From: Truepera sp.
Lineage (GTDB): Bacteria; Deinococcota; Deinococci; Deinococcales; Trueperaceae
Direction of reading: 5' to 3'
Assembly (NCBI GenBank): GCA_965218435.1
Contig: CBDCKW010000009.1
Span: 2,016,001 to 2,080,000, forward strand
DNA length: 64,000 nt
Of this stretch, positions 6,694 to 53,128 are shown in pieces (positions within the stretch are counted from its first letter, which is position 1; every line of letters starts with the position of its first letter). Position numbers and translations under genes: made by a program. The notes beneath the pieces are model-generated. The model saw only the letters and a list, made by a program, of their open reading frames with translations, searched no databases and had not been told where the DNA came from.

Positions 6694-6696
6694 GGT

Positions 6697-38728: not shown

Positions 38729-39023
38729 TTAGTCTCCTAAACCTGTCTTCTTCAACCGGGGGGCATAAAGCAGTTCGGGCGTACGCGTAACTCGGCCTTT
38801 AGGCCAGCCTCCTTTCGATGTGCAAACGTTAGACATAAACAGCTTACGCCTATGACGCTTGCTTTTCCGCAATGGTCTCGTGGCCATTACGATAGTACAG
38901 CCTTTGGGGATTTGTCAAGTAGGCACCCTATATACGCTCTGGCTCATTACGGGGACAAAAGCTCGGGTCAGAGACCAAGGCTCAGGCAGGGTTAATCTCG
39001 GCAGGGGTAAAACCGGCGACGCT

Positions 39024-39473
39024 CACTGTAAGAGGACATGGGCACAGGTCGAAAGTAACTACAAGTTCCAAGCGCCTAAGACCAAAAGGAGCCGCCGTAA
39101 CCTCGAGCTACCCGAACTTGTAAAGCTTTCGCTCGAGCATAAAGCATTGCAACCTGTGGAGAGTGAGCTGATCTTCTCGACTGTAGACGGCACACCCTTA
39201 AGCGAGCGTAACGTCATCGTCCGGCACTTCAAACCGCTCTTAAAGGCCGCTGAGTTGCCTGACGCCTTTATAACTTGCGCCATACTCACGCGACGCTCTT
39301 AACTTATCGTCGGGACAAAGCCCAAAATCGCCAGCGAACGCTTGGGACACTCGAGCATCACCCTGACTTTGGACACCTACAGCCACGTACTACCGGGTAT
39401 GCAGCGCAAATCAGCGAGCAAACTTAACACCATGCTCTTTAATGATGCGGCAGAGGTTAGACCGTACAACTAA
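39024..39473 (+). pseudogene. Tyrosine integrase C-terminal remnant (frameshifted) of an older element
   Basis: APKTKRSRR, LIFSTVDGTPL, then YNLRHTHATLL and KIASERLGHSSITLTLDTYSHVLP in shifted frames. Confidence 0.85.
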
Positions 39474-39563
39474 CCTAAAAAATAGACCGGCACATATGTG
39501 GCACACGCACACGAAAAAAGCACAGCCCGAATCCTCAGGCTGCGCCTCTCTTTTACGTCCCTC

Positions 39564-39620
39564 ACGGCTTTTCTTTGGTAGCGATGAAGAGACTTGAACT
39601 CTTGACCTCACGATTATGAG
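39564..39620. repeat. att site direct repeat (duplicated 3' half of tRNA)
   Basis: 57 bp identical to 53208-53264; 45 bp of it equals the tRNA from anticodon loop to CCA. Confidence 0.95.
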
Positions 39621-39744
39621 AAGTATATGAGCCCTAATGTATCGCACCATGCTCTGATGGGCTGTGATAGAAAGCCCGTTATAGGCGCATTTCTACCCTT
39701 TGCTCTGCCTCTCGTTCAATGTCTCATCACGCTAGGTAACGCGG

Positions 39745-39777
39745 CTGTAGGTGTAAATAATGTGTAACTCAGGTGCA
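39745..39777 (+). promoter_or_regulatory. Putative integrase arm-type binding sites (left end)
   Basis: CTGTAGGTGTAAATAATGTGTAACTCAGGTGCA: GTGTAA-like units at 11-bp period; nearly identical to 53129-53151. Confidence 0.6.
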
Positions 39778-39853
39778 GGCTTTGGGGGGCGTTTACCCCG
39801 TTATGGACGCCGAGGCCATCACAAAACGTAGCGAAACATGGTAAAATTAGAGC

Positions 39854-40354
39854 ATGACGGCGGCGATACCTTACGACGAACTTACGCTTGACGAACTGCT
39901 CGAGCGTGTTGAGCGTATCGTCAGCCGCGCTGAACGGACGCTTACGAAGGGTAAGCCCCGCCGTCTATCCGCCGCCGAACTTGAGCGGGAAAACCGGATG
40001 CGTTCCGTGGTTTTTTGTGCCCCCAAGAATCTTTACTCAAAACGCTGGCAGTCTACTAGCAACTGGCAGGCTTCACTGCCTTCAGCCCTCGGCAGTTTGG
40101 GGACGATAAGGAACATGCGTAAGCTGAACCGCGCGGTTTTTGAGCTTACGCGCATGTTCGCTTGTTCAATACCAAAGGCGCTGTTACAAAAAGTTTTCGC
40201 GCTCATCTTATCGCTCGTTTTTGGTATTGGACTTGAGGACGATACCCCGGAACTGCCTGACGAGCACCGTGATATTGACGTTACACCGCGCCCCGAACCG
40301 CCGTTAAGCAGAATTCCTAAAGCTTTACCTAACGCTCCAAACGCACTGATTTAA
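39854..40354 (+). CDS. Hypothetical protein with Pro-rich C-terminal tail
   Basis: 166-aa ORF; TAAAAT 6 nt before ATG. Confidence 0.5.
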   Translation: MTAAIPYDELTLDELLERVERIVSRAERTLTKGKPRRLSAAELERENRMRSVVFCAPKNLYSKRWQSTSNWQASLPSALGSLGTIRNMRKLNRAVFELTRMFACSIPKALLQKVFALILSLVFGIGLEDDTPELPDEHRDIDVTPRPEPPLSRIPKALPNAPNALI

Positions 40355-40391
40355 GTTTGCGCAGGTCACACCTGCTGGCTTAAATCTCTAC

Positions 40392-40409
40392 CGTGATTTA
40401 TAAATCACG
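40392..40409. promoter_or_regulatory. Perfect 18-bp palindrome, candidate operator
   Basis: CGTGATTTATAAATCACG just upstream of the Xis-like gene RBS. Confidence 0.6.
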
Positions 40410-40426
40410 TGCGTTTGGAGTTTTTT

Positions 40427-40630
40427 ATGACAATGGAACCGAAGGGCTCGAGCCCTTTTTACAGTTATCCCGAGCTTTGGGAAGCGAACGAGAAAAAAAT
40501 CGGCATCAACACGCTGAGGGCTTGGGGACGTTCAAAGAAGCTGAAGACCGTAAGGGTCGGCAGAAAAATCCTAGTGCCCAAAAGCGAACTTGACCGCCTT
40601 GTGGAAATCGCCGGAGGCGACGACTTATGA
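40427..40630 (+). CDS. Excisionase-like HTH (HTH_17/MerR-like) DNA-binding protein
   Basis: IGINTLRAW...KLKTVRVGRKILVPKSELDRL pattern; GGAG RBS. Confidence 0.75.
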   Translation: MTMEPKGSSPFYSYPELWEANEKKIGINTLRAWGRSKKLKTVRVGRKILVPKSELDRLVEIAGGDDL

Positions 40631-40824
40631 AAAATCCCCATCTCGGGCAAGATGGGGACGCGGCGATTCGTAAGGAAAGTTTATCACAAGTCGTTATCTG
40701 CCCCTTTGCTCCCGAATGCTTAAAAAAATGGATTCACCTTGTCGGTACAGAAACGGCAGACTGCCAAAACTTCAGCCGTGCAGACATGGCGAGGATTTTG
40801 GCGGGGGTCGCTGGTGGACGCTAA
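40627..40824 (+). CDS. Small hypothetical protein
   Basis: ATGA-coupled to the Xis-like gene, GGAGG RBS, overlaps primase start. Confidence 0.5.
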   Translation: MKNPHLGQDGDAAIRKESLSQVVICPFAPECLKKWIHLVGTETADCQNFSRADMARILAGVAGGR

Positions 40825-43207
40825 CCTTACCGACCACCACCGCAAGATGCTCGAGACCGAAAGCGGTATCAGCCCTAAAGTCATAGAATCACGTGGCTAC
40901 CGCACTGTTACCGTCAAAGCCGACCTCGCTAAACTCGGCTTTGCCCTTAGTCAGCAAAGCGTTACGGCCCTGCTCATCCCGATTCACGACCCGACCGGGC
41001 ACGTTGGAACCTACCAACTGAGGCCCGACAAACCGCGCACGATTAAAGGTCAGGGCAAAGAACGGATAGTTAAATACGAGACCGTCAAAGGCTCGAGCCT
41101 CACCCTTGACGTAAACCCGTTGTCACTCAACAAACTAGGCGACCCGGCCACGCCTTTGTGTATCACCGAGGGCTCAAAAAAGGTTGACGCACTCGCGTCT
41201 CGCGGCCTCTGTGCGCTTGGGCTTATGGGCGTGTGGGGCTGGAGGGGGACGAATCCGAACGGCGGCAAAACTGCGCTGCCTGCCTGGGAAAACGTAGCTT
41301 TGAACGGGCGCACCGTTTACCTTTGCTTTGATTCGGATGTCACGACGAAGCGTGAAGTTTACGCTGCGCTCGAGCGGCTTAAAGCGTTCTTAGAGTCTCG
41401 TGGTGCATCCGTCCGCATCATCTATCTACCCGACGATGGCGACGCGAAAACTGGCGTTGACGACTACCTCGTTCAGGGTCACGACGTTGGCGACCTCTTG
41501 AAACTCGCTTCAGATGAGCTTAAGCCACCACCCCACGATAACGTAAGCTCAGATGAAATCGTCATCAACCGTCAGGTCAAAGAGGTTGTGACCGACATCT
41601 CGACTCGGCTTAAAGGCTTAGAGCTTAACGGGCAACCGCTCATTTATTCACGTGGCGACGGGCTCTTGGTGGAGATGCGCGAAGGTTTCGAGCTGAGAGA
41701 AATCACTAAGCCCGACAGTCTTAAGGCATTACTACATGACCACCTCGAGCCCGTCTTGGAAAAGACGCTGCAAAGCGGTGAGGTCATCACGACCCCTTCA
41801 GTTTTCAGCGCGAATCACACGGCGCTGCTGACGCGCAAGACTGCAGAGTTTCCGCCGATTAAAGCAGTGAGCGACATCCCTTTGATGCTCCCAAATGGGG
41901 CGATTTTAAGCGAGCCTGGATACCACCGAGAGCACGAGCATTTTCTCAACACTGCCGGGATAACAGTTGAACTTATGCCCTGGCAAGAGGCTCGAGCCCT
42001 ATTCCTGGAAACGTTTAACGAGTTTTCTTACCAAGCGCCGAAAGCTGGGTTCACAGCTACTTTGGCGTTCGTTTTGCAGGCCTTTTTGATGCTGGTCATA
42101 GACGACCACACACCCTTATACGCGATACTCGGCTCCAGACGCGCCGGGAGCGGAACGGGTAAGGGTTACCTACTCGACTGCATTTACCGGATTCAGCGGG
42201 GCCGTCCTTATACTCACGACGGCGCGATGCCCGCAACAGATGAAGAGATGGGTAAAGTCCTCTTCTCAGCTTTAAGTGAAGGTGCCTCGCACATCATCTT
42301 TGATGATATTGACCACCTGAAACACCGTCAGCTTATGGCAGCCATCACGAGCCGGACGTACAAGGGCCGCATCCTGGGGGTAAGTCAACGCCATGAGGTG
42401 AGCACGGCTGTCACCTGGGCCGTATCGGGCAACGCGCCCGATATTCACCGGGACTTTTATAGGCGCGTCATCCCGATTTATCTCGGTGTCGGTAAAGCCC
42501 GCGCATGGGAGCGTTCCTATACCCGGCCTGACCTCAACCGCTACATCCTAGAAAACCGGAACCTTTACATCTCGGCTGCACTCAGCATCTTGGAACACTG
42601 GCGTTCTCTTGGAATGCCTCTCTCTACGGGGGTCATACGGGGGTTTGACCGGTGGTCTGCGGTGATGGGCGGGGTACTCGAGTCCATCGGGCTAACGCAC
42701 CTTTTAGAAGCCCGTGTTGGTCTCGACACGCTTATAGAGGTGGACAACTCAGACTTAGACCTATTGATAGACGCTTGGCAAGGGTGCAGCTTAGCGGACA
42801 AAAAACTGAAGGGCAAAGACCTCTTGAACCTTGCCGCAGGGCATGAGCTATTCACTGAACTTTATGAAGGGCGAACAGAGGCAGCCGGTGCCGGTGAGTT
42901 GGGCAAGTTCTTGAAACCCTACGCGAACGATGTTTTTAAGGGTCACTATCTGCGCCGTGAGTTTGATTCGGACTCTAAGACCTGGCGCTACTTTTTAGAG
43001 CCGGTGCCCGATGCACCGAAACTACTTTCCGAGGTGTTTAATTTCTCAGCTCTTGAAACTTCGGCTGAACACCCCCGTGAGACCCCCGTAAACCTAGAAG
43101 GCGGTGAGGTTACGGGGGTGCTACGGGGGTCTGGCGGCGAAGTTTCAAGAGACAAAGATAATGACGAACTCTCCTACCTTGTCGGTAGTACGGAGGGTGA
43201 GCTGTGA
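40814..43207 (+). CDS. DUF3854/TOPRIM-type primase fused to SF3-like helicase (start GTG 40814 inferred)
   Basis: QLRPDKPR, KYE, ITEGSKK, GVWGW, CFDSD, KTGVDDY; C-terminal GSGTGKG Walker A, IIFDD Walker B, VSGN motif C. Confidence 0.85.
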   Translation: MDANLTDHHRKMLETESGISPKVIESRGYRTVTVKADLAKLGFALSQQSVTALLIPIHDPTGHVGTYQLRPDKPRTIKGQGKERIVKYETVKGSSLTLDVNPLSLNKLGDPATPLCITEGSKKVDALASRGLCALGLMGVWGWRGTNPNGGKTALPAWENVALNGRTVYLCFDSDVTTKREVYAALERLKAFLESRGASVRIIYLPDDGDAKTGVDDYLVQGHDVGDLLKLASDELKPPPHDNVSSDEIVINRQVKEVVTDISTRLKGLELNGQPLIYSRGDGLLVEMREGFELREITKPDSLKALLHDHLEPVLEKTLQSGEVITTPSVFSANHTALLTRKTAEFPPIKAVSDIPLMLPNGAILSEPGYHREHEHFLNTAGITVELMPWQEARALFLETFNEFSYQAPKAGFTATLAFVLQAFLMLVIDDHTPLYAILGSRRAGSGTGKGYLLDCIYRIQRGRPYTHDGAMPATDEEMGKVLFSALSEGASHIIFDDIDHLKHRQLMAAITSRTYKGRILGVSQRHEVSTAVTWAVSGNAPDIHRDFYRRVIPIYLGVGKARAWERSYTRPDLNRYILENRNLYISAALSILEHWRSLGMPLSTGVIRGFDRWSAVMGGVLESIGLTHLLEARVGLDTLIEVDNSDLDLLIDAWQGCSLADKKLKGKDLLNLAAGHELFTELYEGRTEAAGAGELGKFLKPYANDVFKGHYLRREFDSDSKTWRYFLEPVPDAPKLLSEVFNFSALETSAEHPRETPVNLEGGEVTGVLRGSGGEVSRDKDNDELSYLVGSTEGEL
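43050..43151. repeat. ~100-bp imperfect palindrome with ACCCCCGT iterons; candidate replication origin
   Basis: CTCTTGAAACTTCG..ACCCCCGT..ACCCCCGTAA / TTACGGGGGT..ACGGGGGT..CGAAGTTTCAAGAG. Confidence 0.7.
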
Positions 43208-43572
43208 CCTTAAGAGAAAAGCTCGAGCATCAAGGGGTGACCCTTGCCCCTAAGCTCACCTACCAAAGTGCCGCGCCCCTAGACGCTGAAACACTCGCAC
43301 TACTCAAAACCCATAAAGACGACCTGCTGAGAGACCTTATCGTCTCGACCGGATACAGCACCCCGGAACGTCTGCCCTGGCAGTTGGAACGCCTCATCAG
43401 CGCCGCGTGTGCCGACGCGCTGCCCCAAGGCACGGTCACACTACCCTCTGGACTCGTGCCCGACCTTAATCGTTATGTTTTAGGTTGGGGTTGCAGCTAT
43501 CTTGTCAGCGACCGTATAGAAGCCGAAAAGCGTCTCTGGGAAGCCTACCGAGCGTGGCAGGGGGTCAACTGA
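43204..43572 (+). CDS. Hypothetical protein (TubC-N-like N-terminus)
   Basis: GTGA-coupled to primase; L...GVTL...L.Y....L....L.LLK.HK.DLL pattern. Confidence 0.6.
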   Translation: MTLREKLEHQGVTLAPKLTYQSAAPLDAETLALLKTHKDDLLRDLIVSTGYSTPERLPWQLERLISAACADALPQGTVTLPSGLVPDLNRYVLGWGCSYLVSDRIEAEKRLWEAYRAWQGVN

Positions 43573-43573
43573 G

Positions 43574-43804
43574 ATGCCCCGCAAAACACTTCCGGCACAA
43601 CCGCCGCTCTTCCCTAAACGGACGATTACGCCGATTAAAGAAGGTGACGCCCTAGATTTCGCCGACCTTGCACCCTACCTTTACCGCTGTCGGTGCGGAC
43701 ACCGTGCCGAAACCCGTAAGCCTTTACCGGCTGTGACCTGCTCAAAATGCGGCGCTGCAATGCCGCTCGACTCTGAAGCCTCAGCCCACTTACGAAAGGA
43801 TTGA
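43574..43804 (+). CDS. Small zinc-ribbon protein
   Basis: CRCGH and CSKCG motifs; 1 nt after upstream stop. Confidence 0.65.
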   Translation: MPRKTLPAQPPLFPKRTITPIKEGDALDFADLAPYLYRCRCGHRAETRKPLPAVTCSKCGAAMPLDSEASAHLRKD

Positions 43805-44244
43805 CCATGACCGACATTCATAATCTCCATTATAAACTCTCCGAAGCGACCGCCGAATTGACGCAGATTCGGGAACGCCGCACTACTCTCGAGGCTGAAC
43901 TTGCCACCCTCACGCCGCTGGAAACCGAGCTGAGCAATCGGGCTACATCCTTAACGGCTGAACTCCAGCGCCTCGAGCCACCCGCCCCGCGTCCTCAAGA
44001 CGTTGAACGCCTTGCGAGGCTGACCGAAGCCTTGCGTTCTAAGCTCTCTGAAGCCGACCGCCGTTCACCGACCGTTCAACGGGTCAGGGCTAGTCTCGAG
44101 CGTCTCACCGACGAAAGCGTGACCGTCTCCGACCGCTTAAGCCTCGCCTTATCCCTGCTTGACGACCTTAAGAATCACTATCAGCTCGACCGTCGACTTT
44201 GGGATAAAGCTGAAGGTCACAACGCTGCTCAAAGGGGTCGCTAA
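43801..44244 (+). CDS. Coiled-coil hypothetical protein
   Basis: Heptad-rich sequence; AAGGA RBS, TTGA overlap. Confidence 0.6.
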   Translation: MTMTDIHNLHYKLSEATAELTQIRERRTTLEAELATLTPLETELSNRATSLTAELQRLEPPAPRPQDVERLARLTEALRSKLSEADRRSPTVQRVRASLERLTDESVTVSDRLSLALSLLDDLKNHYQLDRRLWDKAEGHNAAQRGR

Positions 44245-44246
44245 TC

Positions 44247-44729
44247 ATGCCCCGTGTTTGCACTATCTGTAGCCACGCTGAACGCGATTCTGTTGACCTC
44301 CTCTTGCTCGAGGGGGCGTCAATACGCGCCATAGCGCGACAGTTTTCACTGAGCAAAGATGCGCTTTCACGCCATAAAGAGAGTCATCTGCCCGGACAAC
44401 TTGCACGGGCTCATGAGGCGAGCGAAGCCGTCAGCGCCGGTACGCTTTTAGACCGGTTGAGGCAGATAACCAGCGAGACTCACGCCGTCTTAAAAGCATC
44501 GAAGCAGGGTAAAAATCCCGAGCTTTCCTTGAAAGCAATCGCTCGACTTGAACGTCAGCTCGAGCTTGAAGCCCGGATGTTGGGAGAGCTTCAGGACAGC
44601 GCCACCACGACGATAAATGTTTACAGCACCCCGGAATGGCTCGTTTTGAGGTCTACCATCCTGAGCGCCTTGACACCTTTTCCAGACGCGGCGAAGGCTG
44701 TAGGAGCGGCCTTGAATGAACATAGTTGA
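44247..44729 (+). CDS. Terminase small-subunit-like HTH protein
   Basis: CTIC.H, SIRAIARQFSLSKDALSRH HTH, helical middle; immediately upstream of TerL ATPase. Confidence 0.6.
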   Translation: MPRVCTICSHAERDSVDLLLLEGASIRAIARQFSLSKDALSRHKESHLPGQLARAHEASEAVSAGTLLDRLRQITSETHAVLKASKQGKNPELSLKAIARLERQLELEARMLGELQDSATTTINVYSTPEWLVLRSTILSALTPFPDAAKAVGAALNEHS

Positions 44730-45477
44730 CGATTTGAGATTTGCCTTAGACCCGGCTGTTTTTGCACTCGAGGCGCTAGGTTTAAGGCTAGACCCGTGGC
44801 AACGCGAGGCAGTCAGCTCAGCTTCAAAACGCGACCTTTTTAACTGCGCACGTCAATCTGGAAAATCAACCGGGGCGGCGGTAATCGCTCTGCATGAGGC
44901 TTTGTACAAACCGGGTTCACTTACCCTGCTTATCTCACCTTCACAGCGGCAATCATCGGAATTATTCCGCAAGGTCACAGAACTTCGGGAACTGCTACCG
45001 ACCGCACCGGAATTGACAGAGGACAACAAGCTCAGCTTGACGATTCAAGGCGGCGGTAGAGTCCTCTCCCTACCCGGTTCCGAGCAAACGATTCGGGGCT
45101 TCTCAGGTGCAACCTTAGCGGTACTGGACGAAGCAAGCCGCATACCTGACGAGTTGTACTTCAGCGTCCGGCCCATGCTTGCAACCCGTCAGGGGCGCAT
45201 GATTCTGATGAGCACACCTTTTGGGAAAAGAGGCTTTTTTTGGGCTGAATGGTCTGGAATCTCCCCCTGGAACCGGGTAGAAATCCCGGCTTCAGCCGTG
45301 CCGAGAATTACCCCGGAGTTTCTAGCGGAGGAAAAGGCGAGCCTGGGCGATTGGTGGTTTCGCCAAGAATACGGCTGTCAATTTTTGGAATCTACCGATT
45401 CGGTATTCTCCCATGACTCGGTGATGAACGCGCTCGACGATAGCGTCAAACCCTTGTTTGGAGACTCCCATGCTTGA
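44716..45477 (+). CDS. Terminase large subunit, stand-alone ATPase domain
   Basis: LDPWQ Q-motif, ARQSGKS Walker A, AVLDEA Walker B, MSTP motif III, FRQEYGCQF. Confidence 0.88.
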   Translation: MNIVDDLRFALDPAVFALEALGLRLDPWQREAVSSASKRDLFNCARQSGKSTGAAVIALHEALYKPGSLTLLISPSQRQSSELFRKVTELRELLPTAPELTEDNKLSLTIQGGGRVLSLPGSEQTIRGFSGATLAVLDEASRIPDELYFSVRPMLATRQGRMILMSTPFGKRGFFWAEWSGISPWNRVEIPASAVPRITPEFLAEEKASLGDWWFRQEYGCQFLESTDSVFSHDSVMNALDDSVKPLFGDSHA

Positions 45478-46180
45478 ACCGACTGCTAAGACAGCCTCTA
45501 CCCCTGTAACCTTACAGACCCGCGCCCCTGTCTACCTTTTAGGCTGCGACTTAGGTCAGGCTCAAGACTTTACGGCGCTCACGGTGCTCGAGCAAAGCTT
45601 CATAGATACCGGGAAAACCGAAAGCTACGGCCTACCGTCCCCTACGATTAGAGGGCGTCCGCTGCGGCCCATGCCGACCCGCCCGGTCTACCAACGCCTT
45701 TACGCCGCCCGTCACCTCGAGCGTCTACCCAAAAACACGAGCTACCCCAAACAGGTTGAGCGAGTCGCTGAGCTTTACGAATCCCTTACCGCGATGAACG
45801 GCGTAAGACCTCACCTGATTGTGGACGCGACCGGCGTAGGTGCTGCTGTCGTTGATTTACTGCGGCTTGCCAGACTGAACCCTATCGCGGTCACGATTAC
45901 CGCAGGTGACGCGACCTCTTCAGATGGTGACAGCTTCAGAGTCCCCAAGAAAGACCTCGTGGCGACGATAGCGGTGCTCTTACAGTCCGAACGGTTAAAG
46001 GTTGCCAAAGCCTTACCCGACGCCCAAACCCTTATAGATGAACTGCTGGCGTTCAAAGCTCATATCAATCAGCGGGGTCATGCAAGCTTTGGAAACGATG
46101 TTGGGAGCTGGAGAGAAGCGCCGCATGATGACCTTGTGCTGAGCGTGGCACTGGCGTGCTGGTATGGCGAGAGTAGGTGA
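45470..46180 (+). CDS. Terminase large subunit, stand-alone RNase H-like nuclease domain
   Basis: LGCDLGQAQDFTA, IVDATGVG, HDDLVLS acidic motifs; own GGAG RBS and ATG overlapping upstream stop. Confidence 0.82.
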   Translation: MLEPTAKTASTPVTLQTRAPVYLLGCDLGQAQDFTALTVLEQSFIDTGKTESYGLPSPTIRGRPLRPMPTRPVYQRLYAARHLERLPKNTSYPKQVERVAELYESLTAMNGVRPHLIVDATGVGAAVVDLLRLARLNPIAVTITAGDATSSDGDSFRVPKKDLVATIAVLLQSERLKVAKALPDAQTLIDELLAFKAHINQRGHASFGNDVGSWREAPHDDLVLSVALACWYGESR

Positions 46181-46363
46181 CGCAAAACTTACGCGAGAGC
46201 TCGAGGCACGACTCATCCGCAGCACTCAGCACACGACAGGCGAGCTGCCAACGGTTCACAATGACACCTCTCAGGCCTCGAGCAGTCCTAACCCGACCCG
46301 AAGGGGAGATAGCACCACTCCCCTTCGGGTCACACCTTTACATTCGATTAGTGGACTAGCGTG

Positions 46364-46798
46364 CTAGGTCGCTTCAAAGTATTCGTCTAGAACAATGGTT
46401 TTCAAAGCTATCAAGGTATCCGCGATTATTAGGTGGTGGCGTTGTTGAGATGCCGACCCAAATTGCTTTTTTAAGAAGTCGGTGCACAAATCCGATTTCG
46501 TTCTAAAAGCCTTCGCGCTACTGGCTTCGATAGCCAAGCTTAAAATTCTTTGAGTCTCTCGACCAAACTGAATACTGAAGCCCAACTTATCCTGATAGAC
46601 GTGCCCTGCACGTTCTTGTGTGTCGTACACGTAATCAACCTTTAGGATGTCGCTATCTATCCTCGCCTCCGCATTCTCAGGCAGATAGATATGTGACAGC
46701 GTCCGAATCTCATACTGTCGTTTTCCTAAAAGCGGGTTTGCGTCCGATGTTGCGTGCCTTCCACCGAACGATAGCGGCAGCTTTTGCGTCTCGGTCAC
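46364..46798 (-). CDS. Hypothetical cargo protein
   Basis: 144-aa ORF, GGAG RBS, 9 nt downstream of partner gene. Confidence 0.6.
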   Translation of the reverse strand: MTETQKLPLSFGGRHATSDANPLLGKRQYEIRTLSHIYLPENAEARIDSDILKVDYVYDTQERAGHVYQDKLGFSIQFGRETQRILSLAIEASSAKAFRTKSDLCTDFLKKQFGSASQQRHHLIIADTLIALKTIVLDEYFEAT

Positions 46799-46807
46799 GG
46801 GCGGCTC

Positions 46808-47662
46808 CTAAAGGGTTCGATTTAACATTGTAGCGTAGTCGTCAATCCTTCTTTGTACGCTTGGCTTATCAAAAGGACAACGTTCCTGAACGCTGTCGAT
46901 AACGAGTACCCCAACGCGGGCGCTCGTTTTTGGGTTGACTAACGGTACAGCATGAAAGTGCCGAGCGATGACATGAAGCCGTTTCACAGTAGCTGGCGTT
47001 GAATAGGTTTCAAGTAAATAGGTATGGACTTGAGCAGGCATCGGCCCGTCGAGATGCAGAGCAGAAAGGTCGAGGGCGCGGATGTCAGGCAAGTCGCGTT
47101 TTGTGACTACATCGCCTGTTTGCATGACATGAGAAGCGACGCTCTCGCAATCCTCTCTTGTTGCAGGGTTGTAATGGAAAAATGTACCCGAGTTATTGTA
47201 CTCGGTTCCTATTCTCTGAGTGATGTGGACAAACCGATACTGAAAAATCTTACGCGGCTTCATCCGCGTGCTTTTCTTGCGCCCTCTAGCTCGCCGATTA
47301 CACGTCATAATGAAGACCTGAACCCATATATATCGGGCCATCCACCAATTTGCTTTTCTAAAAATCGTTATGCGAAGTTCAGTTTTTTCATTGTCGAATA
47401 GCTCGGAGCGCATATCCTCTAAAATAGCCTCTCGAATTCTCCGCAGTTTTCCACGGGGTTCAGCGAAAAAGCCGCCCCAACTATTGATTATTACGGACAC
47501 AGTTATTAGAGCCGCAATTATCCACCATTTATGCGTAAAGGCGAAATCATTAAGCGCCTGCTGTATCGGGTCAGGGTACTTAGCAGGTTTGACCTGCGCA
47601 AAAAATGCTGTGGCGATAGTTACAAGAGTAAGTATGACGACAAGCCAAAGGGGACGACGCAT
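46808..47662 (-). CDS. Two-TM protein with possible GAF-like C-terminal domain (start ATG 47662 inferred)
   Basis: Two hydrophobic helices; C-terminal FHAVPLVN....VGVLVIDS is GAF-like. Confidence 0.6.
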   Translation of the reverse strand: MRRPLWLVVILTLVTIATAFFAQVKPAKYPDPIQQALNDFAFTHKWWIIAALITVSVIINSWGGFFAEPRGKLRRIREAILEDMRSELFDNEKTELRITIFRKANWWMARYIWVQVFIMTCNRRARGRKKSTRMKPRKIFQYRFVHITQRIGTEYNNSGTFFHYNPATREDCESVASHVMQTGDVVTKRDLPDIRALDLSALHLDGPMPAQVHTYLLETYSTPATVKRLHVIARHFHAVPLVNPKTSARVGVLVIDSVQERCPFDKPSVQRRIDDYATMLNRTL

Positions 47663-47739
47663 ATAAAGTTCGTTACCACTATACCTTAACTCTTCTAACA
47701 TGACGTAAACAGACCTTAGTTCCATTAAAAGAGTGCTTA

Positions 47740-47782
47740 TACACCGTTTTGGTGTTAATTCCTTGTACAACAACATGGTGTA
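47740..47782. promoter_or_regulatory. Two TACACC-N5-GGTGTA-like operators over the divergent promoter of the XRE gene
   Basis: TACACCGTTTTGGTGTT (47740-47756) and TACAACAACATGGTGTA (47766-47782). Confidence 0.55.
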
Positions 47783-47790
47783 ATAACGTT

Positions 47791-48027
47791 ATGAATAGAC
47801 AAGTACGTAGTGCTGCCCGCCAAGCCGTTTCGGGGCAGGGGCTTACCCAAGATAAGCTCGCCAAGCGTGCGGGGCTGTCGCAGCAAGCGGTAAGCCGCAT
47901 CCTCAACAACGACCGTACGGGCAACCCAGATTCTTGGGATAGAATCCTCGACGCCCTCGACCTAAAACTCGCCGCGATACCAAAGAACGCAGACATCGAA
48001 CAACTCTTCGACAGGAAAGGGGAATAA
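47791..48027 (+). CDS. XRE/Cro-like HTH repressor
   Basis: GLTQDKLAKRAGLSQQAVSRILN HTH; ends 2 nt before the integrase pseudogene ATG. Confidence 0.85.
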   Translation: MNRQVRSAARQAVSGQGLTQDKLAKRAGLSQQAVSRILNNDRTGNPDSWDRILDALDLKLAAIPKNADIEQLFDRKGE

Positions 48028-48029
48028 AT

Positions 48030-48773
48030 ATGGCACGACGGCGCACAAGCAAACGGGCAAAAAATGAGGGCTCAGTCTTCGAGCTACCAAATGGCACATG
48101 GCGGGGCAAGGTCACGACCGGTTATGACGACGAAGGTAAGTAAAAGTTCCGTTGGGTCTCAGGTAAAACGCAGGGTGAGGCGCTGGCTAAAGTAGCGGAG
48201 ATAAAGCAGCGGCTTGTGAGCGGCACCTATACCGATACTAAGCTCACGGTAGCGGAATATCTTGAACGGTGGCTAGAGGAGAAGAAGCGCACGCTAAAAG
48301 CCTCTACGCTGGAACAGTACGAAAGTTGCATCAACTGTTCAATCGTGCCGCTAATCGGTAAGGTCAAACTCGACAAGCTCACACCTTTACAGGTGCAAAA
48401 CCTTGTGAACGGGATACACGACGTTTCAGGAGCCGCTCGAGCTGCAAAGTGTCGCACTGTCCTCTTCAGCGCCTATAAACAGGCGATTCGCTGGCAACTC
48501 GTGACCCGGAACCCGGTAGAGGCAACCGACCCGGTAAAGGAACCGCATCGGGAGATGACCTTATGGGAGCCGGAACAAGCGGCGCGGTTTCTCGACACCG
48601 CCCGGTCACACCGGCTGTTCGCGTTCTTTTACCTGAGCATGGCGACCGGCCTACGCCGTGGGGAGCTGCTAGGTCTGCGTTGGGTTGATATAGAGGGGAA
48701 CCTGCTACACGTCAAGCAAACACTCGTTAAGGTTGGGAGTAAGCTTATCCTCTCAACACCGAAAACGCGCTAA
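48030..48773 (+). pseudogene. Tyrosine integrase pseudogene (internal stop, C-terminal half missing)
   Basis: ATG 48030 MARRRTSKRAKNEGSVFE; in-frame TAA at 48141; homologous to 51932 integrase; ends after TPKTR without HxLRH/Tyr. Confidence 0.9.
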
Positions 48774-48836
48774 GGCTCGAGCCAGTAGCCTTACTTAAAG
48801 GAAAACACTTGAGCAAACATATAGAGAGAGGATTAG

Positions 48837-49709
48837 ATGACGATTTCAGAAGCGTTTGAAACGTTTTTAAGGAATCTCGAGGTTAAAAATCAAGACGACA
48901 TCCGCTTGCGTTACCGAAACATCACTAAAAGTGTAAACCGGGAATTCAGAGGTTCTGACTCGGAAACTGAGAACAGTTTATATCTTGGCTCTTACGCTAG
49001 AAACACTGCCATTAACGGCTTCAGCGACCTAGACATGGCTGTTATTTTGCCAGAGGCTGAGAAGGAGCGAGTCGAGAGCATCTACACCTATCCTCAGAGC
49101 GCGCTCCTAAGAAGTGTAAAGACGGCTTTGGAAAAAACCTACCCGCGAACTGAGATGCGGGCGGACGGACAAGTAGTAGTAGTGCTGTTTAGCGACGGGA
49201 TGCAGATTGAGGTTGTCCCGTTCATAGAACGGTCAAGCTCGCGTGGCTTCTACTTCCCGGACACGCACGACGACGGCTCCTGGAAAGAAACCGACCCAAA
49301 AGGCGAGCAAGAAACGTTTTTCGACCTAAGCCGGATTGCGAATGGAAACGCTGTAAAAATAGGCCGCATTATGAGGGCTTGGCGCAGGAAGCACAATGTA
49401 CCTATTAGCGGTATCCTATTAGATACCTTTATAACCCGGTTTTTGATTGAAAACCATTATGGGTTTGGTTCGTTTTATATGTGTGATTGGATTTGCCGAG
49501 ATTTTTTTCGTTACTTGTCGGAATTGCCGAAGCGGGGAGCATGGTCATCGCCGCGACACACTTACATGATAAAAGAGAAAGGAGATTTCCGACCCTCGGC
49601 TCGTGAGGCTTACAACATCACCCAAGAGGTTAAGAGTTCAATCGAATTTGACTTTGATGATTGCTGGGAATGGAGACGTATTTTCGGTGACGATTTCCCA
49701 CTCACCTAA
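48837..49709 (+). CDS. SMODS/cGAS-DncV-like nucleotidyltransferase (CD-NTase)
   Basis: GSYARNTAINGFSDLDM (GS...DxD), DGQVVVV.F, IEVVP, FPDT..DGSW..TDP, RIMRAW, ISGILLD. Confidence 0.88.
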   Translation: MTISEAFETFLRNLEVKNQDDIRLRYRNITKSVNREFRGSDSETENSLYLGSYARNTAINGFSDLDMAVILPEAEKERVESIYTYPQSALLRSVKTALEKTYPRTEMRADGQVVVVLFSDGMQIEVVPFIERSSSRGFYFPDTHDDGSWKETDPKGEQETFFDLSRIANGNAVKIGRIMRAWRRKHNVPISGILLDTFITRFLIENHYGFGSFYMCDWICRDFFRYLSELPKRGAWSSPRHTYMIKEKGDFRPSAREAYNITQEVKSSIEFDFDDCWEWRRIFGDDFPLT

Positions 49710-50301
49710 CGACCACAACATGCTAGAAGCTCAGCTTCGTGAGGTCTACGGGCGCATCGTTTACACGCACAAGACCCACGAAAAGATGGCTGACCTCCTC
49801 ACGTCTAGATACAACGTGACTCAGTGGATTCAAACGATTTTGTCTGGCCTGACGACCACTAGCTTGCTAGTCGTCATATTTGGCAATTCGGAGATGGGCG
49901 CTGTTATCGCAGCCTTTCTTTCGGCCTTTCTATTCATGGTCAACCTTTATCTACAGAACAATAATCTAGGCCAAAGAGTCGAGCGGCATACGGAAGTCGC
50001 GGCGGTCTTATGGGGCATCCGGGAAAGCTATCTAACGCTCATCACCGACTTACTAACCCCTGTCCCAAACATTGATTACATCAAGGCGGAACGGGATAGG
50101 TTACAAGACATAAGTGAAAGGGTATTTCGCAACGCGCCGCGTACCAATGCAAAGGCATATAGGTTGGCTCAAAATGCCTTGAAAAATAATGAGGAACTTA
50201 CCTTCAGTGAAGACGAGCTCGACCTATTGTTGCCGGAAGAGTTGAGGAAAGGTAAGCGCAGAAAGAGGATGAGTAACAGCGACACTGAACAGCCCAGCTG
50301 A
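49687..50301 (+). CDS. SLATT-domain 2TM effector (start GTG 49687 or ATG 49720)
   Basis: LREVYGRIVYTHKTHEK.AD, two TM helices, LWGIRESYLTL, APRT...AY..AQ.ALK.NEELTFS; abuts the NTase. Confidence 0.85.
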   Translation: MTISHSPNDHNMLEAQLREVYGRIVYTHKTHEKMADLLTSRYNVTQWIQTILSGLTTTSLLVVIFGNSEMGAVIAAFLSAFLFMVNLYLQNNNLGQRVERHTEVAAVLWGIRESYLTLITDLLTPVPNIDYIKAERDRLQDISERVFRNAPRTNAKAYRLAQNALKNNEELTFSEDELDLLLPEELRKGKRRKRMSNSDTEQPS

Positions 50302-50387
50302 TGAGTCATCACACTTAACGGCAAGTCTAGTAGTGGCGCTTGCAACCATACCTACTATGTTGAACAAACAAGCTAACGGAAGGTGTT

Positions 50388-50420
50388 AAAACCCCGGCGA
50401 ATACCGGGGCTACTTCGTTT
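50388..50420. terminator. Probable bidirectional intrinsic terminator
   Basis: AAAA-CCCCGG-cgaata-CCGGGG followed by T-rich tract between convergent genes. Confidence 0.55.
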
Positions 50421-50430
50421 TGCAAGCAGT

Positions 50431-50763
50431 TCAGGCCGCTTCTCTAAAGGGCTCGAGTGCCCTCATCTGATACCGGGCTAAATCCCACTCTAGCCGTGCT
50501 CCCTCATACGCGCATAGGGCCTCTGTCAGCGCGTCTTCAGCTTCAGCGAGCGCGGTGTACTCAGCACTCAGCTCGAGCCGTAGCTTAGCCGTCCGCTCCC
50601 GTTCATTCTTACCGTCTACCCCGGCGCACAGTTTCAGGGCTTCAGCGTGCTCGAGCGTCCGCTTGGCTTCAGCGTGAGCAGTGACCGAGCCGCACAGGTT
50701 GATTTGAGCATCCTCTAAACCGTTCTTAGCGCAGCGCAGTTGGGAGAGAAGAGTGGCGCTCAC
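50431..50763 (-). CDS. Phage-type coiled-coil hypothetical protein
   Basis: GTGA coupling with GAGG RBS; GKNERER motif in helical protein. Confidence 0.6.
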   Translation of the reverse strand: MSATLLSQLRCAKNGLEDAQINLCGSVTAHAEAKRTLEHAEALKLCAGVDGKNERERTAKLRLELSAEYTALAEAEDALTEALCAYEGARLEWDLARYQMRALEPFREAA

Positions 50764-50951
50764 GCCGCCTCTCCCCAAAAATCATAGTCAGGTACTTCGT
50801 CTTGGATGATTGGAGGCAGTTCATCACCTGTGCCACCCGAAGGGTCGGTATCTGCCCCGTCGTCTTCAGCTGCCAACTCTGCGTAAAGCGCCTGTAAATC
50901 CTCTTCACGGTCGCTGTACATCTCGACATCTACAAAGTAGAAGGGGCTCAT
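50760..50951 (-). CDS. Small acidic hypothetical protein
   Basis: TAATG coupling upstream, GTGA coupling downstream; D/E-rich. Confidence 0.5.
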   Translation of the reverse strand: MSPFYFVDVEMYSDREEDLQALYAELAAEDDGADTDPSGGTGDELPPIIQDEVPDYDFWGEAA

Positions 50952-51157
50952 TACAGAGCCCGTCCCGCAACGCGTACCGCTGCTTTGATGGTGCTGTGCT
51001 TGGACACAAGGTTAAAAGCTGAGTCAAAAACCTCCCAGACCGTGCCCCAAGTTTGGAGGCAACCGACGACTTCAGCGCCGCGCATGAGGTCATACGCCTT
51101 AACGGGGGTGCGGTAGCTTGCGCCGTCTTGCTTGTGGAGGGTGATGGTATTGTTCAC
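50951..51157 (-). CDS. Small hypothetical protein
   Basis: GGAG RBS before GTG; first gene of leftward operon. Confidence 0.5.
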   Translation of the reverse strand: MNNTITLHKQDGASYRTPVKAYDLMRGAEVVGCLQTWGTVWEVFDSAFNLVSKHSTIKAAVRVAGRAL

Positions 51158-51285
51158 TTTAGAACTCCGTTTCTAGTTAGAGGCTGTACTTTTCGAGGGT
51201 CTGCCTCTAACTGCCTTTAGTTTATCAGGTATCGGCTAAACTGTCAAGCATGTACAGCTTAAGCTAAATGTGCTAAGCTACTAAT

Positions 51286-51624
51286 ATGAAATGGAAACTG
51301 AAAGACTACTTAGAGCAACACGACATCACCGCACATCAATTGGCCCTCGAGTCAAAGCTCAGTCTGAACAGTGTTTACCCGGCAGTCCGGGGGCAAGCCG
51401 AGCGTGTCAGTTTGGCAACGCTTGACCGGATGCTTACGGCGCTCGACAAGCTGACGGGTGAGCGGGCAGAGCTGGGGGATGTACTTGAGCGAGAAGATGA
51501 CGCTTATGAGTTTCCGGGTGAGGTTCCAGCGGACATCCGCGAACGAATAGAACGATTTGAACGGGGTGAAGTGAAGCTTATCCCAGCTGCGGATATTGCC
51601 GCCAAATACGGCGTCAAACGTTGA
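51286..51624 (+). CDS. Cro/C1-type HTH regulator with antitoxin-like C-terminus
   Basis: MKWKLKDYL....ITAHQLA..S.LS HTH; acidic tail ERIERFERGEVKLIPAADI; overlaps RelE gene. Confidence 0.75.
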   Translation: MKWKLKDYLEQHDITAHQLALESKLSLNSVYPAVRGQAERVSLATLDRMLTALDKLTGERAELGDVLEREDDAYEFPGEVPADIRERIERFERGEVKLIPAADIAAKYGVKR

Positions 51625-51929
51625 CTTATGAGGTCATCTTCACCGATGAGGTAGATAGAGACTTAGAGGCGATTACCGATGTACGAACCCGTAACGCAGT
51701 CATTCGTAAAGCTCTTGACCTCGACACCGAACCCGACAAGCAAGGAAAAACGCTAGGCGGCAATCTAGCAGCTTACCGGGTCGTCAGAGCCGCAGGGCAA
51801 CGCTACCGGGTGGTCTATCAGATAGCGAGTCTCGAGGGTGTGGTCACTGTGGTGGTGGTAGGTATCCGCAAAGAAGGCGACAAGAGAGACGTGTACCGAG
51901 TAGCGAGCAAACGGTTAGGAAAGGGGTAA
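51621..51929 (+). CDS. RelE/ParE family toxin
   Basis: YEVIFT.E...DL, GKTL.G.LA.YR, YRVVY, VVVVGIRK. Confidence 0.88.
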   Translation: MTYEVIFTDEVDRDLEAITDVRTRNAVIRKALDLDTEPDKQGKTLGGNLAAYRVVRAAGQRYRVVYQIASLEGVVTVVVVGIRKEGDKRDVYRVASKRLGKG

Positions 51930-51931
51930 CG

Positions 51932-53125
51932 ATGCCAAGACGTAAGAGCACGAGACGCGGTAAGGGTGAGGGTTCTGTCTTTGAGTTTGAACGGAATTAC
52001 AAAAAGCAAGACGGCTCTATCGTCGTCCGTTCCGGCTGGGAGGGTAAGGTTACGGTCGGTTATGACGAAAACGGTAAGCAACGTTTCAAGAGCGTGTATG
52101 GCAAAACGCAGAATGAAGCTCTAGCTAAAATTGCTGAGATTAAACAGCGTCTTATGAACGGCACCTATTCAGATACCAAGTTGACGGTCGCCGAATACCT
52201 TGAGCAGTGGTTAAGAGAGAAAGAGCGCAGCGTCAAGGAACGAACAGCGATGCTCTACCGGGAACAAGCCGAGCGGTACGTTATCCGCAAGATAGGCAGT
52301 GTCAAGCTCGAGAAGCTCACGCCCTTACACCTTCAGCGGATGATTAGCGAACTCGCTGACGAAATCGGCGTCCCGACCGCGAACAAAGCCCGCACCCTGA
52401 TGTTCGCCGCGTTAAAGCAAGCGGTGCGGTGGCAGCTCATTCACCGGAACCCATGTGAAGCTGTCGCTAAGCTTAAAGAGACCCGTAAAGAGATGACGCT
52501 ATGGACGCCCGCCGAAACCTTGAAGTTCTTAGGAGCGGCCCGACCCCACCGTTTATACGCCGCGTTCTATCTGGCTGTGTTTGCCGGACTCCGTAGAGGT
52601 GAGCTGTTAGGGCTACGTTGGAAAGACCTCACCGGCCCCGTGCTGAGCGTCAAGCAATCCCTGACCGTCTTAGGCGGTACACCGCACTTCACAACACCCA
52701 AGACCCGTAAAGGTGAGCGGCACATCACCGTCTCCCCTGACGTGCTCGAGGTACTCGCACAGCACCGGCTGATTCAAGAGGCAGAGGCTAAAGCTTTAGG
52801 CGACGCCTGGACAGATTCCGGGCTCATCTTTGCAACTGAAGTTGGAACGCTCATTCACCCCCGGAACTTTGAACGCACATTCAAAGACCTGCTTAAGACT
52901 GCCGACGTAACGAAGGCCCGGTTGCACGACCTGAGACACTTGCACGTCTCGCTACTCGTTTCTAAAGGGTTTGACCCGCGTTCAATCGCCGACCGGGTAG
53001 GCCATACGAACCCGAGCTTCACAATGGACGTGTACAGCCATATGTTTGCAACGCAGAGAGCGCAGGCCGCTGTCGGCATGGCTGACCTACTCGGAACCGA
53101 CGCGAGACAGGAAAAACTGAATTAA
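51932..53125 (+). CDS. int: Tyrosine recombinase/phage integrase (intact)
   Basis: GEGSV arm domain; catalytic GLRRGE, TPKT, LHDLRH, VGH, DVYSH; adjacent to att/tRNA. Confidence 0.95.
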   Translation: MPRRKSTRRGKGEGSVFEFERNYKKQDGSIVVRSGWEGKVTVGYDENGKQRFKSVYGKTQNEALAKIAEIKQRLMNGTYSDTKLTVAEYLEQWLREKERSVKERTAMLYREQAERYVIRKIGSVKLEKLTPLHLQRMISELADEIGVPTANKARTLMFAALKQAVRWQLIHRNPCEAVAKLKETRKEMTLWTPAETLKFLGAARPHRLYAAFYLAVFAGLRRGELLGLRWKDLTGPVLSVKQSLTVLGGTPHFTTPKTRKGERHITVSPDVLEVLAQHRLIQEAEAKALGDAWTDSGLIFATEVGTLIHPRNFERTFKDLLKTADVTKARLHDLRHLHVSLLVSKGFDPRSIADRVGHTNPSFTMDVYSHMFATQRAQAAVGMADLLGTDARQEKLN

Positions 53126-53128
53126 ACC

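Follow-up and report, generated by a model that had tools for sequence, protein, structure and literature searches.

Does an integrative element in a Truepera sp. genome, with a complete packaging enzyme and no recognisable capsid gene, package its DNA into the heads of another phage, and is the division of its large terminase (TerL) between two genes a genuine state of that enzyme? The locus lies in what we call the window, i.e. the whole stretch of 64,000 nucleotides that was analysed (contig CBDCKW010000009.1 of assembly GCA_965218435.1, positions 2,016,001 to 2,080,000).

The element at tRNA-Met and its terminase trio

A direct repeat of 70 nt (39551-39620 and 53195-53264, 96% identical) marks the att sites, and the region between its copies (39621-53194, 13.6 kb) is a composite integrative element at tRNA-Met, with a CBASS cassette. 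The features, in window coordinates, are:

39551-39620, no strand: distal att repeat, a copy of the tRNA-Met 3' half plus 25 nt (repeat search, sequence read)
39854-40354, + strand: 166-aa ORF that opens the + strand gene block (no match to Pfam, PHROG or PADLOC)
40409-40630, + strand: HTH_17 (AlpA/excisionase-type) small DNA-binding protein (Pfam HTH_17, E 6.4e-6, 26.8 bits against a cut-off of 27)
40739-43207, + strand: replication protein, 822 aa (DUF3854, E 1.6e-22; phrog_10537, E 1.5e-44; phrog_16213 'DNA primase', E 1.8e-12)
43204-44244, + strand: three overlapping small ORFs of 122, 76 and 147 aa, the last coiled-coil-like (sub-threshold matches only)
44247-44729, + strand: TerS-like protein gene, 160 aa, zinc/HTH (ORF list)
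44716-45477, + strand: TerL ATPase subunit gene, 253 aa (Terminase_6N, E 7.9e-11; phrog_7579, E 1.6e-61)
45470-46180, + strand: TerL nuclease subunit gene (RNase H-like), 236 aa (phrog_27743, E 1.6e-37)
46364-47776, - strand: two ORFs of 144 and 322 aa, probably accessory genes (no Pfam, PHROG or PADLOC match)
47749-48027, + strand: Cro/C1-type HTH regulator (Pfam HTH_3, E 2.7e-9)
48216-48773, + strand: truncated tyrosine integrase, N-terminal 185 aa only (Phage_int_SAM_3, E 1.2e-17; phrog_1, E 6.6e-37)
48837-50301, + strand: CBASS-type defence pair, SMODS oligonucleotide cyclase and SLATT_4 two-transmembrane effector (Pfam, PADLOC)
51286-51929, + strand: HTH_26 antitoxin-like and ParE/RelE-type toxin genes (HTH_26, E 1.5e-5; ParE_toxin, E 1.2e-6; phrog_1213)
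51932-53125, + strand: intact tyrosine integrase, 397 aa, beside the tRNA (Phage_integrase, E 6.4e-18; phrog_1, E 2e-69)
53195-53296, - strand: tRNA-Met (53220-53296) and the overlapping proximal att repeat (53195-53264) (ARAGORN; repeat search)

The integrase-primase setting that the initial annotation gave to the divided terminase is borne out by the integrase at 51932-53125 and the replication protein at 40739-43207. The latter has a DUF3854 (Toprim-like) N-terminus and a C-terminal region common to phage primase/helicase-type families; HTH_17 genes recur in related elements. Integrase fragments lie at 38859-39427 and 48216-48773; the second is probably the element's original integrase, and 48099-48291 is 74% identical to 52037-52229 in the intact integrase gene. 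The CBASS pair was found by both Pfam (SMODS, E 1.5e-40; SLATT_4, E 4.3e-60) and PADLOC (Cyclase, E 5.2e-90; 2TM Effector, E 4.2e-71). G+C is lower around the 144-aa and 322-aa ORFs (0.475 at 47001-48000), and the nearest Atlas clusters of the 322-aa ORF are labelled 'GAF domain-containing', a lead only.

Among the 20 ORFs between the att repeats, the ATPase alone had a PHROG match in the 'head and packaging' category, and Pfam scans of the same interval found no capsid, portal or tail family, which agrees with the earlier claim that such genes are absent between the att sites. Nine ORFs of the element had no match at all, so an unrecognised structural gene is formally possible. Contigs built from four sequencing runs held no excision or circle joint between the att sites, and a promoter and terminator scan of 39500-48300 gave counts no better than chance.

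The trio has the order first described, i.e. TerS-like, 253-aa ATPase and 236-aa nuclease, with coordinates and lengths as in the ORF list, and all three genes are intact. The end of the TerS-like gene overlaps the ATPase gene start by 14 nt. The ATPase/nuclease junction reads ATGCTTGA, where the ribosome-binding site and the start/stop overlap ascribed to the nuclease gene are plain to see: GGAG (45460-45463) sits 6 nt 5' of the nuclease ATG (45470), and the ATPase gene ends in TGA at 45475-45477. The nuclease open frame spans 45458-46180, its 236 aa being counted from the ATG at 45470, and is in the +1 frame relative to the ATPase gene, which it overlaps by 8 nt. By this layout, the nuclease gene is translationally coupled to the ATPase gene.

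Each half matches one TerL domain, and the split falls at the ATPase-nuclease linker, where the initial annotation had placed it. In the HMM searches that it had proposed, the ATPase matched Pfam Terminase_6N (E 7.9e-11) with 42.4 bits, above the cut-off of 22; the protein also matches phrog_7579 (E 1.6e-61), a profile merely 239 positions long. The GKST, DE and STP columns of its alignment, which we take to be Walker A, Walker B and the coupling motif, are conserved, as is the protein's tail, which ends in PLF, and the best 120 ATPase homologues are all short (232-284 aa).

The nuclease matches phrog_27743 (E 1.6e-37) and scores 21.5 bits against Terminase_6C, slightly below the Pfam cut-off of 22.6, which several homologues exceed. 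The proposed structure searches were clearer: its family profile retrieved the G20c TerL nuclease from the PDB (5m1q, E 1.2e-9), and Foldseek with the predicted structure (pLDDT 89.7) gave the G20c and P74-26 TerL nucleases as top matches (5m1f, E 1.8e-8). The acidic residues D27, D119, D220 and D221 are conserved, and together with the ATPase columns they uphold the view that the catalytic motifs are intact. A tblastn search of isolated phage genomes with the nuclease gave no match at 1e-5, and the only match to an isolated phage came from blastp against Riverbug TerL (E 4e-6). Stand-alone relatives abound: the best 120 homologues are all short (138-260 aa), a profile search gave 3118 cluster representatives at E<=1e-30 (the best 150 all of 194-311 aa), and the stand-alone nuclease makes up more than 3000 clusters at 50% identity. 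PHROGs label this half 'unknown function', which is why two-gene terminases get read as truncated. Set beside a T4-like large terminase, the 253-aa protein supplies the ASCE ATPase with Walker A/B and coupling motif and the 236-aa protein the RNase H-like nuclease with its acidic residues; the two domains are not on one polypeptide, being encoded by two genes in different frames.

The 160-aa protein is TerS-like by position and architecture. Its HTH is framed by a CxxC...HxxxH zinc motif, and it also has a long helical hairpin and paired helices at the C-terminus (model pLDDT 82.8); C5, C8, H43 and H47 are conserved in its homologues, one of which lies immediately upstream of TerL in the split loci and also in phages Riverbug and MMP17 (37% identity). 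Its HTH_38 match is below the cut-off, and Pfam and PHROG scans of the protein found no TerS family. Foldseek of the model gave nothing at E<=0.001 (best E 0.23; Sf6 TerS at E 0.7-0.9), hhalign against G20c TerS gave a probability of 0.4%, a VIA wide structure search with the model gave generic helical hairpins only (Z<=8.5), and the profile matched only designed helical proteins among PDB sequences. The earlier label 'TerS-like HTH' is therefore partly verified: position and architecture agree with it, while family and fold matches do not add to it.

Related elements and the satellite reading

Members of the window's clade are elements of 7-15 kb, either integrated or circular, that combine a replication module with the terminase trio, and no capsid, portal or tail genes were found in them. 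Four circular contigs (7.1-13.4 kb) hold only the trio, a primase-helicase and regulators; in the 7.1-kb circle L048, which encodes a 781-aa primase and the trio, all other ORFs are of <=258 aa. Integrated copies L010, L011, L007 and L012, the last in Thermovorax subterraneus DSM 21563, are bounded by host genes, and a second copy in the Truepera genome itself (~7.5 kb) has primase, helicase, trio, integrase and tRNA-Thr. Of 39 loci that span >=9 kb, just 2 have capsid or portal genes. Relatives with portal or capsid genes, which the initial annotation said would mean a decayed prophage, were thus not what we found: the related complete elements are without capsid genes. ATPase identity to the window's is 55-91% in the capsid-less set and 42-58% in viral contigs with split TerL. 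Across related elements the trio is paired with many different replication modules, and the compact gene set occurs across many phyla of bacteria as well as in bins of methanogens and haloarchaea. The element is present in 3 of 41 related genomes, a patchy distribution as a mobile element would predict. In the host genome, which marker genes put at 100% completeness, Phage_capsid, Phage_portal and Phage_Mu_F all went unmatched, and Terminase_6N matched the two split copies only; any helper would thus have to arrive from elsewhere.

Since the packaging enzyme is complete and capsid genes are absent, the element probably loads its own DNA into another phage's capsids. We give a probability of roughly 0.6 to the reading that the window element belongs to a family, so far undescribed, of phage-satellite-like elements which carry an entire terminase and rely on borrowed procapsids; capsid-less satellites with TerL do not appear in the literature searched (main texts, mainly of non-subscription journals). 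Once excised and replicated, the element would have its packaging site recognised by its own TerS-like protein and its DNA cut by the nuclease subunit; docked on the portal of a helper-phage procapsid, the ATPase would pump that DNA in, with head, tail and lysis supplied by the helper. An element with a whole terminase of its own would no longer depend on the packaging specificity of the helper and could compete for procapsids with that helper. Docking of TerL on portals across unrelated phages is an assumption of this satellite reading. A wider proposal is tentative and in our view rather doubtful, namely a cross-domain family of minimal 'packaging-competent replicons', each joining a swappable replication module to an autonomous three-protein terminase that would load the procapsids of unrelated helpers; with the TerL motor naturally separate from the nuclease, each activity might be dosed or deployed on its own, e.g. 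the nuclease in trans on helper DNA.

The trio might instead have been repurposed away from packaging into helper capsids, e.g. for resolving replication concatemers, cutting infecting phage DNA, or occupying procapsids without transfer. The host's want of capsid and portal genes, the defence cargo (CBASS) on the island and the many replication modules found with the trio would all suit such a role. We consider it unlikely, because all packaging-motor motifs are kept under purifying selection, the closest relatives, where the context is known, are terminases of phages with portal genes alongside, the TerS-like partner is always retained, and the literature searched offers no precedent.

That these elements could be autonomous viruses of very small size, with capsid genes that have diverged beyond recognition, seems to us quite improbable; the many ORFs without family match, the circular 7-13 kb contigs and three more contigs with terminal repeats in a viral-contig collection would fit this reading. 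Terminase-driven packaging in tailed phages requires a portal and a major capsid protein, and L048 has only its small ORFs to offer beyond primase and trio; in the window, the largest unassigned ORF (322 aa) is nearest to bacterial, not viral, Atlas clusters, a lead only.

A decayed prophage of which the packaging genes alone are left is very improbable. The integrase fragments at 38859-39427 and 48216-48773 do speak for past rearrangement at the tRNA, and the nearest isolated phages are complete at 33-34 kb; the same compact gene set, however, occurs as complete circles and bounded insertions in many phyla, its genes are under purifying selection, and a truly decayed third copy in the genome looks unlike it, being broken by stop codons.

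The two-gene large terminase in relatives

The same split was sought in other genomes, as had been proposed, and proved widespread. A fused TerL gene was absent from all 104 related public loci: in 89 the ATPase is followed by a separate nuclease ORF, with all three relative frames represented, in 5 the nuclease comes first, and in 10, of which 9 lie at contig ends, only the ATPase is seen. In four methanogen-type loci the TerS-like gene stands between a leading nuclease gene and the ATPase gene. The fear that close homologues would turn out fused was not realised, the best 120 of each half being short as well. Junctions in relatives occur in all three frames; in-frame stops, spacers as long as 620 nt and a permuted gene order are all found among them. 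Of 139 split loci, 106 have a Shine-Dalgarno-like motif ahead of the nuclease start; at control positions the count was 44 of 139. In the second terminase copy of the same genome (61% identity for the ATPase, 59% for the nuclease) the junction is an ATGA overlap instead; a third copy is decayed, with interrupting stop codons. Fused relatives are rare, with 4 proteins (472-537 aa) that share 34-45% identity with the nuclease. Relative G010 has a 460-aa open frame over its nuclease, which we rejected as an out-of-frame overlap and no fusion.

With dN/dS of 0.06-0.21 in both TerL halves, ATPase and nuclease are, by this measure, under purifying selection. At the level of sequence comparison, a very large family has the two-gene TerL as its conserved state, maintained by selection. 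In a quick tree bearing on one fission versus several, 46 of 101 inner branches were open.

Contigs of two of the four runs span the junction and show no difference at 45440-45500, the interval for which a read check had been advised; these two runs are from one sample, possibly the assembly's source, so their agreement is not independent support. We give next to no credence to the split being an artefact (sequencing error or recent frameshift) or being bridged by programmed frameshifting into one polypeptide: the 8-nt overlap of the two frames and the few fused relatives would fit, but the relatives' junctions vary in frame, stops, spacing and order, the GGAG and ATG start is conserved in kind, and the contigs of the two runs, though perhaps from the source sample, cross the junction unchanged.

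Viral contigs provide further relatives, 61 of 78 with split TerL, and at least 21 of these 61 have an adjoining portal or adaptor gene; in L003 and L004 the split TerL lies beside portal genes. The idea that the satellite itself devised the split is accordingly not borne out: phages share the two-gene layout, which is not special to satellites, and because bona fide phages have it next to portal genes, we conclude that the element inherited its two-gene TerL. Outside intron or insertion cases, no two-gene TerL appears in the literature covered (mainly non-subscription journals, main texts). A natural two-subunit TerL is a ready system for studying the nuclease domain's role in translocation, portal docking and termination when untethered from the ATPase.

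Comparison with known systems

With PICIs/SaPIs the element shares tRNA/att integration with a tyrosine integrase, an AlpA/excisionase-type HTH, its own primase-type replication protein, a small-terminase-like gene, the lack of capsid genes, a size of ~10-15 kb and defence cargo. PICIs by definition use the helper's large terminase, whereas the window element encodes both catalytic TerL halves itself; no capsid-size redirection genes were recognised in it. SatelliteFinder's PICI type is reportedly marked by integrase, AlpA-type regulator, primase/replicase, small size and no capsid or tail genes, and these gene-content features are all present in the window element, over 13.6 kb between att repeats. 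P4-like satellites carry the capsid-size genes psu, delta and sid and an alpha-type primase, none of which was matched in general PHROG and Pfam scans of the window element.

Among isolated phages, Riverbug and MMP17 TerLs are 46-48% identical to the window ATPase, and a homologous 160-aa gene precedes TerL as it does in the window; the closest fold to the window nuclease is that of the G20c and P74-26 TerL nuclease domains. These Thermus/Meiothermus phage TerLs (Riverbug, MMP17, MMP7; G20c and P74-26 are more distant) are, in contrast, single polypeptides of 415-417 aa (G20c, 485 aa), followed by portal and head genes. A terL split by insertion (helper-embedded satellites, introns) is likewise annotated as two TerL fragments, but nothing is inserted in the window, where the genes overlap by 8 nt and each half is a conserved stand-alone gene.

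The cf-PICIs are satellites with their own TerS and TerL; besides these they have genes for the capsid, the portal and further head proteins, and tails are all that they steal (10.1101/2022.09.08.507074). The window element has no head gene. It differs further in that its TerL is two genes, and no capsid, portal, protease or head-tail connector was matched in its 20 ORFs or in complete relatives. Marine virion-encapsidated elements (VEIMEs/PICMIs) are small integrase/primase elements without capsid genes, some with TerS homologues and 'motor-like ATPases', and the helper's large terminase is their presumed complement, in the part of the source available (PMC9618062). Neither a TerL nuclease nor a two-gene TerL appears in the passages covered (PMC9618062), and the window element differs in having both.

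Uncultivated tailed phages (viral contigs L003, L004, L120 and others) have the same ATPase and nuclease families (PHROG 7579 and 27743) in the same coupled two-gene layout and, unlike the window element, carry portal, protease, scaffold, capsid and tail genes. Among described satellites, PICIs and P4 borrow the helper's large terminase and cf-PICIs bring the whole head; if our satellite reading is true, an element that brings only the complete terminase represents a third satellite strategy, of a type that appears common in environmental bacteria and archaea.

The composite element at tRNA-Met

A 70-nt direct repeat (39551-39620 and 53195-53264, 96% identical) adjoins tRNA-Met and encloses 13.6 kb, in which the following gene order was observed from left to right:

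ORF without assigned function, leftmost
HTH_17 gene
Replication protein, 822 aa, DUF3854/primase-type
Three small ORFs
44247-44729, terminase trio: TerS-like protein, 160 aa (ORF)
44716-45477, terminase trio: TerL ATPase, 253 aa (ORF; Terminase_6N, phrog_7579)
45458-46180, terminase trio: TerL nuclease ORF, 236 aa from what is most plausibly its start, the ATG at 45470
Two opposite-strand ORFs without assigned function, in a lower-G+C stretch
Cro/C1-type regulator
48216-48773, integrase fragment, N-terminal 185 aa
48837-50301, two-gene CBASS-type cassette: SMODS oligonucleotide cyclase and SLATT_4 two-transmembrane effector
Small ORFs
HTH/ParE-type pair
Intact integrase, rightmost

No ORF of the element matches a capsid, portal, protease, connector or tail protein, in agreement with the initial annotation, which had seen no portal, capsid or tail gene between the att sites. 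The element is composite, with its outer repeats and right-hand integrase intact. The CBASS cassette, located between the integrase fragment and the intact integrase, probably came as cargo with a second islet that fused to the terminase element. Just beyond the left att repeat there is another tyrosine integrase fragment (38859-39427), C-terminal and with its frame broken, indicating that the tRNA-Met site gathered elements in tandem; taken together, the fragments at 38859-39427 and 48216-48773 are a sign that tandem insertion and deletion occurred there more than once. The window copy is nonetheless an intact, though composite, member of its element family. In the two runs containing the window, contig depth over 50391-51424 is 4-5x that elsewhere in the island, and several variant contigs terminate there, so this segment is repeated in the genome or the sample.

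A large terminase in two genes

Profile searches identify the middle protein of the trio as a TerL ATPase, with a Pfam match to Terminase_6N above the cut-off (E 7.9e-11) and a PHROGs match to phrog_7579 (E 1.6e-61), a profile itself just 239 positions long. The last protein is the TerL nuclease. Its Pfam Terminase_6C score is slightly below the cut-off (21.5 vs 22.6 bits), and it matches phrog_27743, annotated 'unknown function' in PHROGs, across its length (E 1.6e-37); a profile of its relatives matches, at E 1.2e-9, the nuclease domain crystallised for Thermus phage G20c. Foldseek with its AlphaFold model (pLDDT 89.7) ranked the G20c and P74-26 TerL nucleases best, then those of D6E, T4, Sf6 and the herpesvirus terminase. 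In the ATPase the Walker A, Walker B and STP motifs, and in the nuclease the acidic residues of all three motifs, are invariant or almost invariant among relatives, bearing out the intact catalytic motifs proposed from the sequence. Because CxxC...HxxxH residues are conserved around the N-terminal HTH in the TerS-like family (44247-44729 and relatives, alignment A3), this DNA-binding domain is suggested to be zinc-stabilised; we know of no characterised small terminase with this residue set.

At the junction, GGAG (45460-45463) is followed by six bases, the nuclease ATG (45470) and the ATPase stop TGA (45475-45477), with the nuclease in the +1 frame and ATGCTTGA as the start/stop overlap; this ribosome-binding site and overlap, and the three ORF calls themselves, are as first described. 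In the conserved ATPase tail (PLFGG and similar) the codons spell GGAGG, and a Shine-Dalgarno-like motif lies before a nuclease start close to the ATPase stop codon in 106/139 split loci vs 44/139 control positions.

The split is real, old and under selection. The alternative raised by the initial annotation, that close homologues would prove to be fused, found no support: none of 104 related loci taken from genome, metagenome and viral contigs has a fused TerL gene, and the best homologues are all short. The best 120 ATPase homologues (62-91% identical) are every one 232-284 aa and the best 120 nuclease homologues 138-260 aa; among 1.84 billion cluster representatives the nuclease profile hit 3118 at E<=1e-30, the best 150 of which are all 194-311 aa. 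ATPase and then nuclease occur as separate ORFs in 89 of the 104 loci, in all three relative frames, with junctions ranging from overlaps of 1-50 nt through some in-frame stop-then-start cases to gaps of up to 620 nt. Ten loci have the ATPase alone; nine of these end at a contig end, and the tenth (L109) has no match in its 1.4 kb of downstream sequence. The nuclease comes first in five, namely the circular contig L048, which wraps, and four ordered nuclease, TerS-like, ATPase (L007, L008, L060, L071). The latter are methanogen-type contigs with the permuted trio downstream of a replication-size protein (~1000 aa) and an ATPase still ~60% identical to bacterial ones. In unsaturated pairs, the ATPase has a pairwise dN/dS of 0.06-0.19 and the nuclease one of 0.12-0.21. 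Contigs of two runs, possibly from the assembled sample itself, span the window junction without difference.

Fused forms are more distant: four proteins of 472-537 aa have 34-45% identity to the nuclease, and the phages Riverbug, MMP17 and MMP7 have fused TerLs of 415-417 aa, with the ATPase 46-48% identical. In P0241, one of the fused forms, a stretch of ~ten residues separates the 'PL' tail from the first nuclease strand, placing the break exactly at the interdomain linker, as had been proposed.

Phages and capsid-less elements sharing the two-gene TerL

The split TerL was not invented by satellites. The initial annotation had taken it as part of a satellite strategy of its own; that the split itself arose as such an innovation is not supported, since the same two-gene TerL adjoins portal genes in phage contigs. 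Scanning viral contigs a second time added 78 loci: 61 split, 14 with long ORFs (13 bearing both Terminase_6N and Terminase_6C) and three ATPase-only. In at least 21 of the 61, the large gene that comes next encodes a portal or a portal-like adaptor, with several different families represented. Besides the split TerL, phage contig L003 encodes portal, protease, scaffold, major head and tail genes, and L004 Mu-F-like, cement and capsid genes. In a quick tree, whose weak backbone allows no direction of change, fused and split TerLs are intermixed, and one supported group of 19 rows unites Riverbug and MMP17 with the split L003 and L004. In L003 (37 kb; 6150-6935) the conserved N-terminus of the ATPase frame is interrupted by an in-frame stop after ~ten codons, and a canonical start follows only much further on; an error, a recoded stop or an unusual start may explain this.

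The host genome holds a second trio (ATPase 61%, nuclease 59% identical; joined by an ATGA overlap) in a compact element of ~7.5 kb at tRNA-Thr (L033 8026-15370; G000:C9, ~2.628-2.635 Mb), together with its own integrase, a DnaG-type primase and an AAA_25 helicase, a replication module different from that of the window element. A third copy is a decayed nuclease/ATPase remnant near G000:C9:1.392 Mb. In the tree, a 13.4-kb circular contig carries the sister of the window ATPase, which belongs to a fully supported 23-row clade along with the second copy and two other circular contigs. Terminal direct repeats mark four whole contigs, three with 127-nt repeats (7,096, 9,908 and 10,890 bp) and one with a 70-nt repeat (13,383 bp). 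They carry the trio together with a primase-helicase of D5/RepB or Toprim type and HTH regulators; a ParE toxin is present in some, and neither an integrase nor a structural protein in any. The viral collection has another three contigs (11.7-15.2 kb) with repeats at their ends. Integrated copies flanked by host genes were found in four records, Thermovorax subterraneus DSM 21563 and Acetivibrionales, Magnetococcales and methanogen bins.

Related elements might have carried portal or capsid genes, as expected of a decayed prophage; among 39 loci of at least 9 kb, scanned for ORFs of at least 170 aa only, by one representative per cluster in 34 loci and with several loci one-sided, head genes were found in just two, L003 and L004. 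Isolated tail-like matches occur in L017 and L116, and a lysin domain in L098. L116, an 11-kb contig in other respects like the capsid-less elements, encodes a 1700-aa protein with tape-measure-like PHROG matches after its nuclease gene (2957-8059). By record title, contig-to-bin misassignment being possible, relatives span Bacillota, Pseudomonadota, Acidobacteriota, Gemmatimonadota, Acetothermia, NPL-UPA2, and methanogen and haloarchaeal bins; the nuclease profile was found in 3/41 related genomes and 0/5 of the same genus.

DNA packaging and known satellites

The terminase is the constant part of the capsid-less elements, while replication and integration modules vary, and the same two-gene terminase lies beside portal genes in phages; the most economical reading is that the trio would still package DNA, with elements lacking head genes taking the procapsids of another phage. 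We infer the steps from excision to docking. Counted against this reading, neither a capsid, portal or Mu-F gene nor any Terminase_6N gene beyond the split TerL copies could be detected in the host genome; a weak point is the 160-aa protein, which is a putative TerS.

In the literature covered, which included PMC9618062, PMC12822802, 10.1101/2025.02.15.638363 and 10.64898/2026.08.12.739948, split terminases appear only as intron or insertion cases, and no satellite with TerL yet without capsid appears. We regard the window element as a probable phage satellite whose way of packaging would be new, and its two-subunit TerL as under-recognised. PICIs supply TerS only and cf-PICIs the whole head; if the packaging reading holds, the strategy of satellites of the window type lies between the two.
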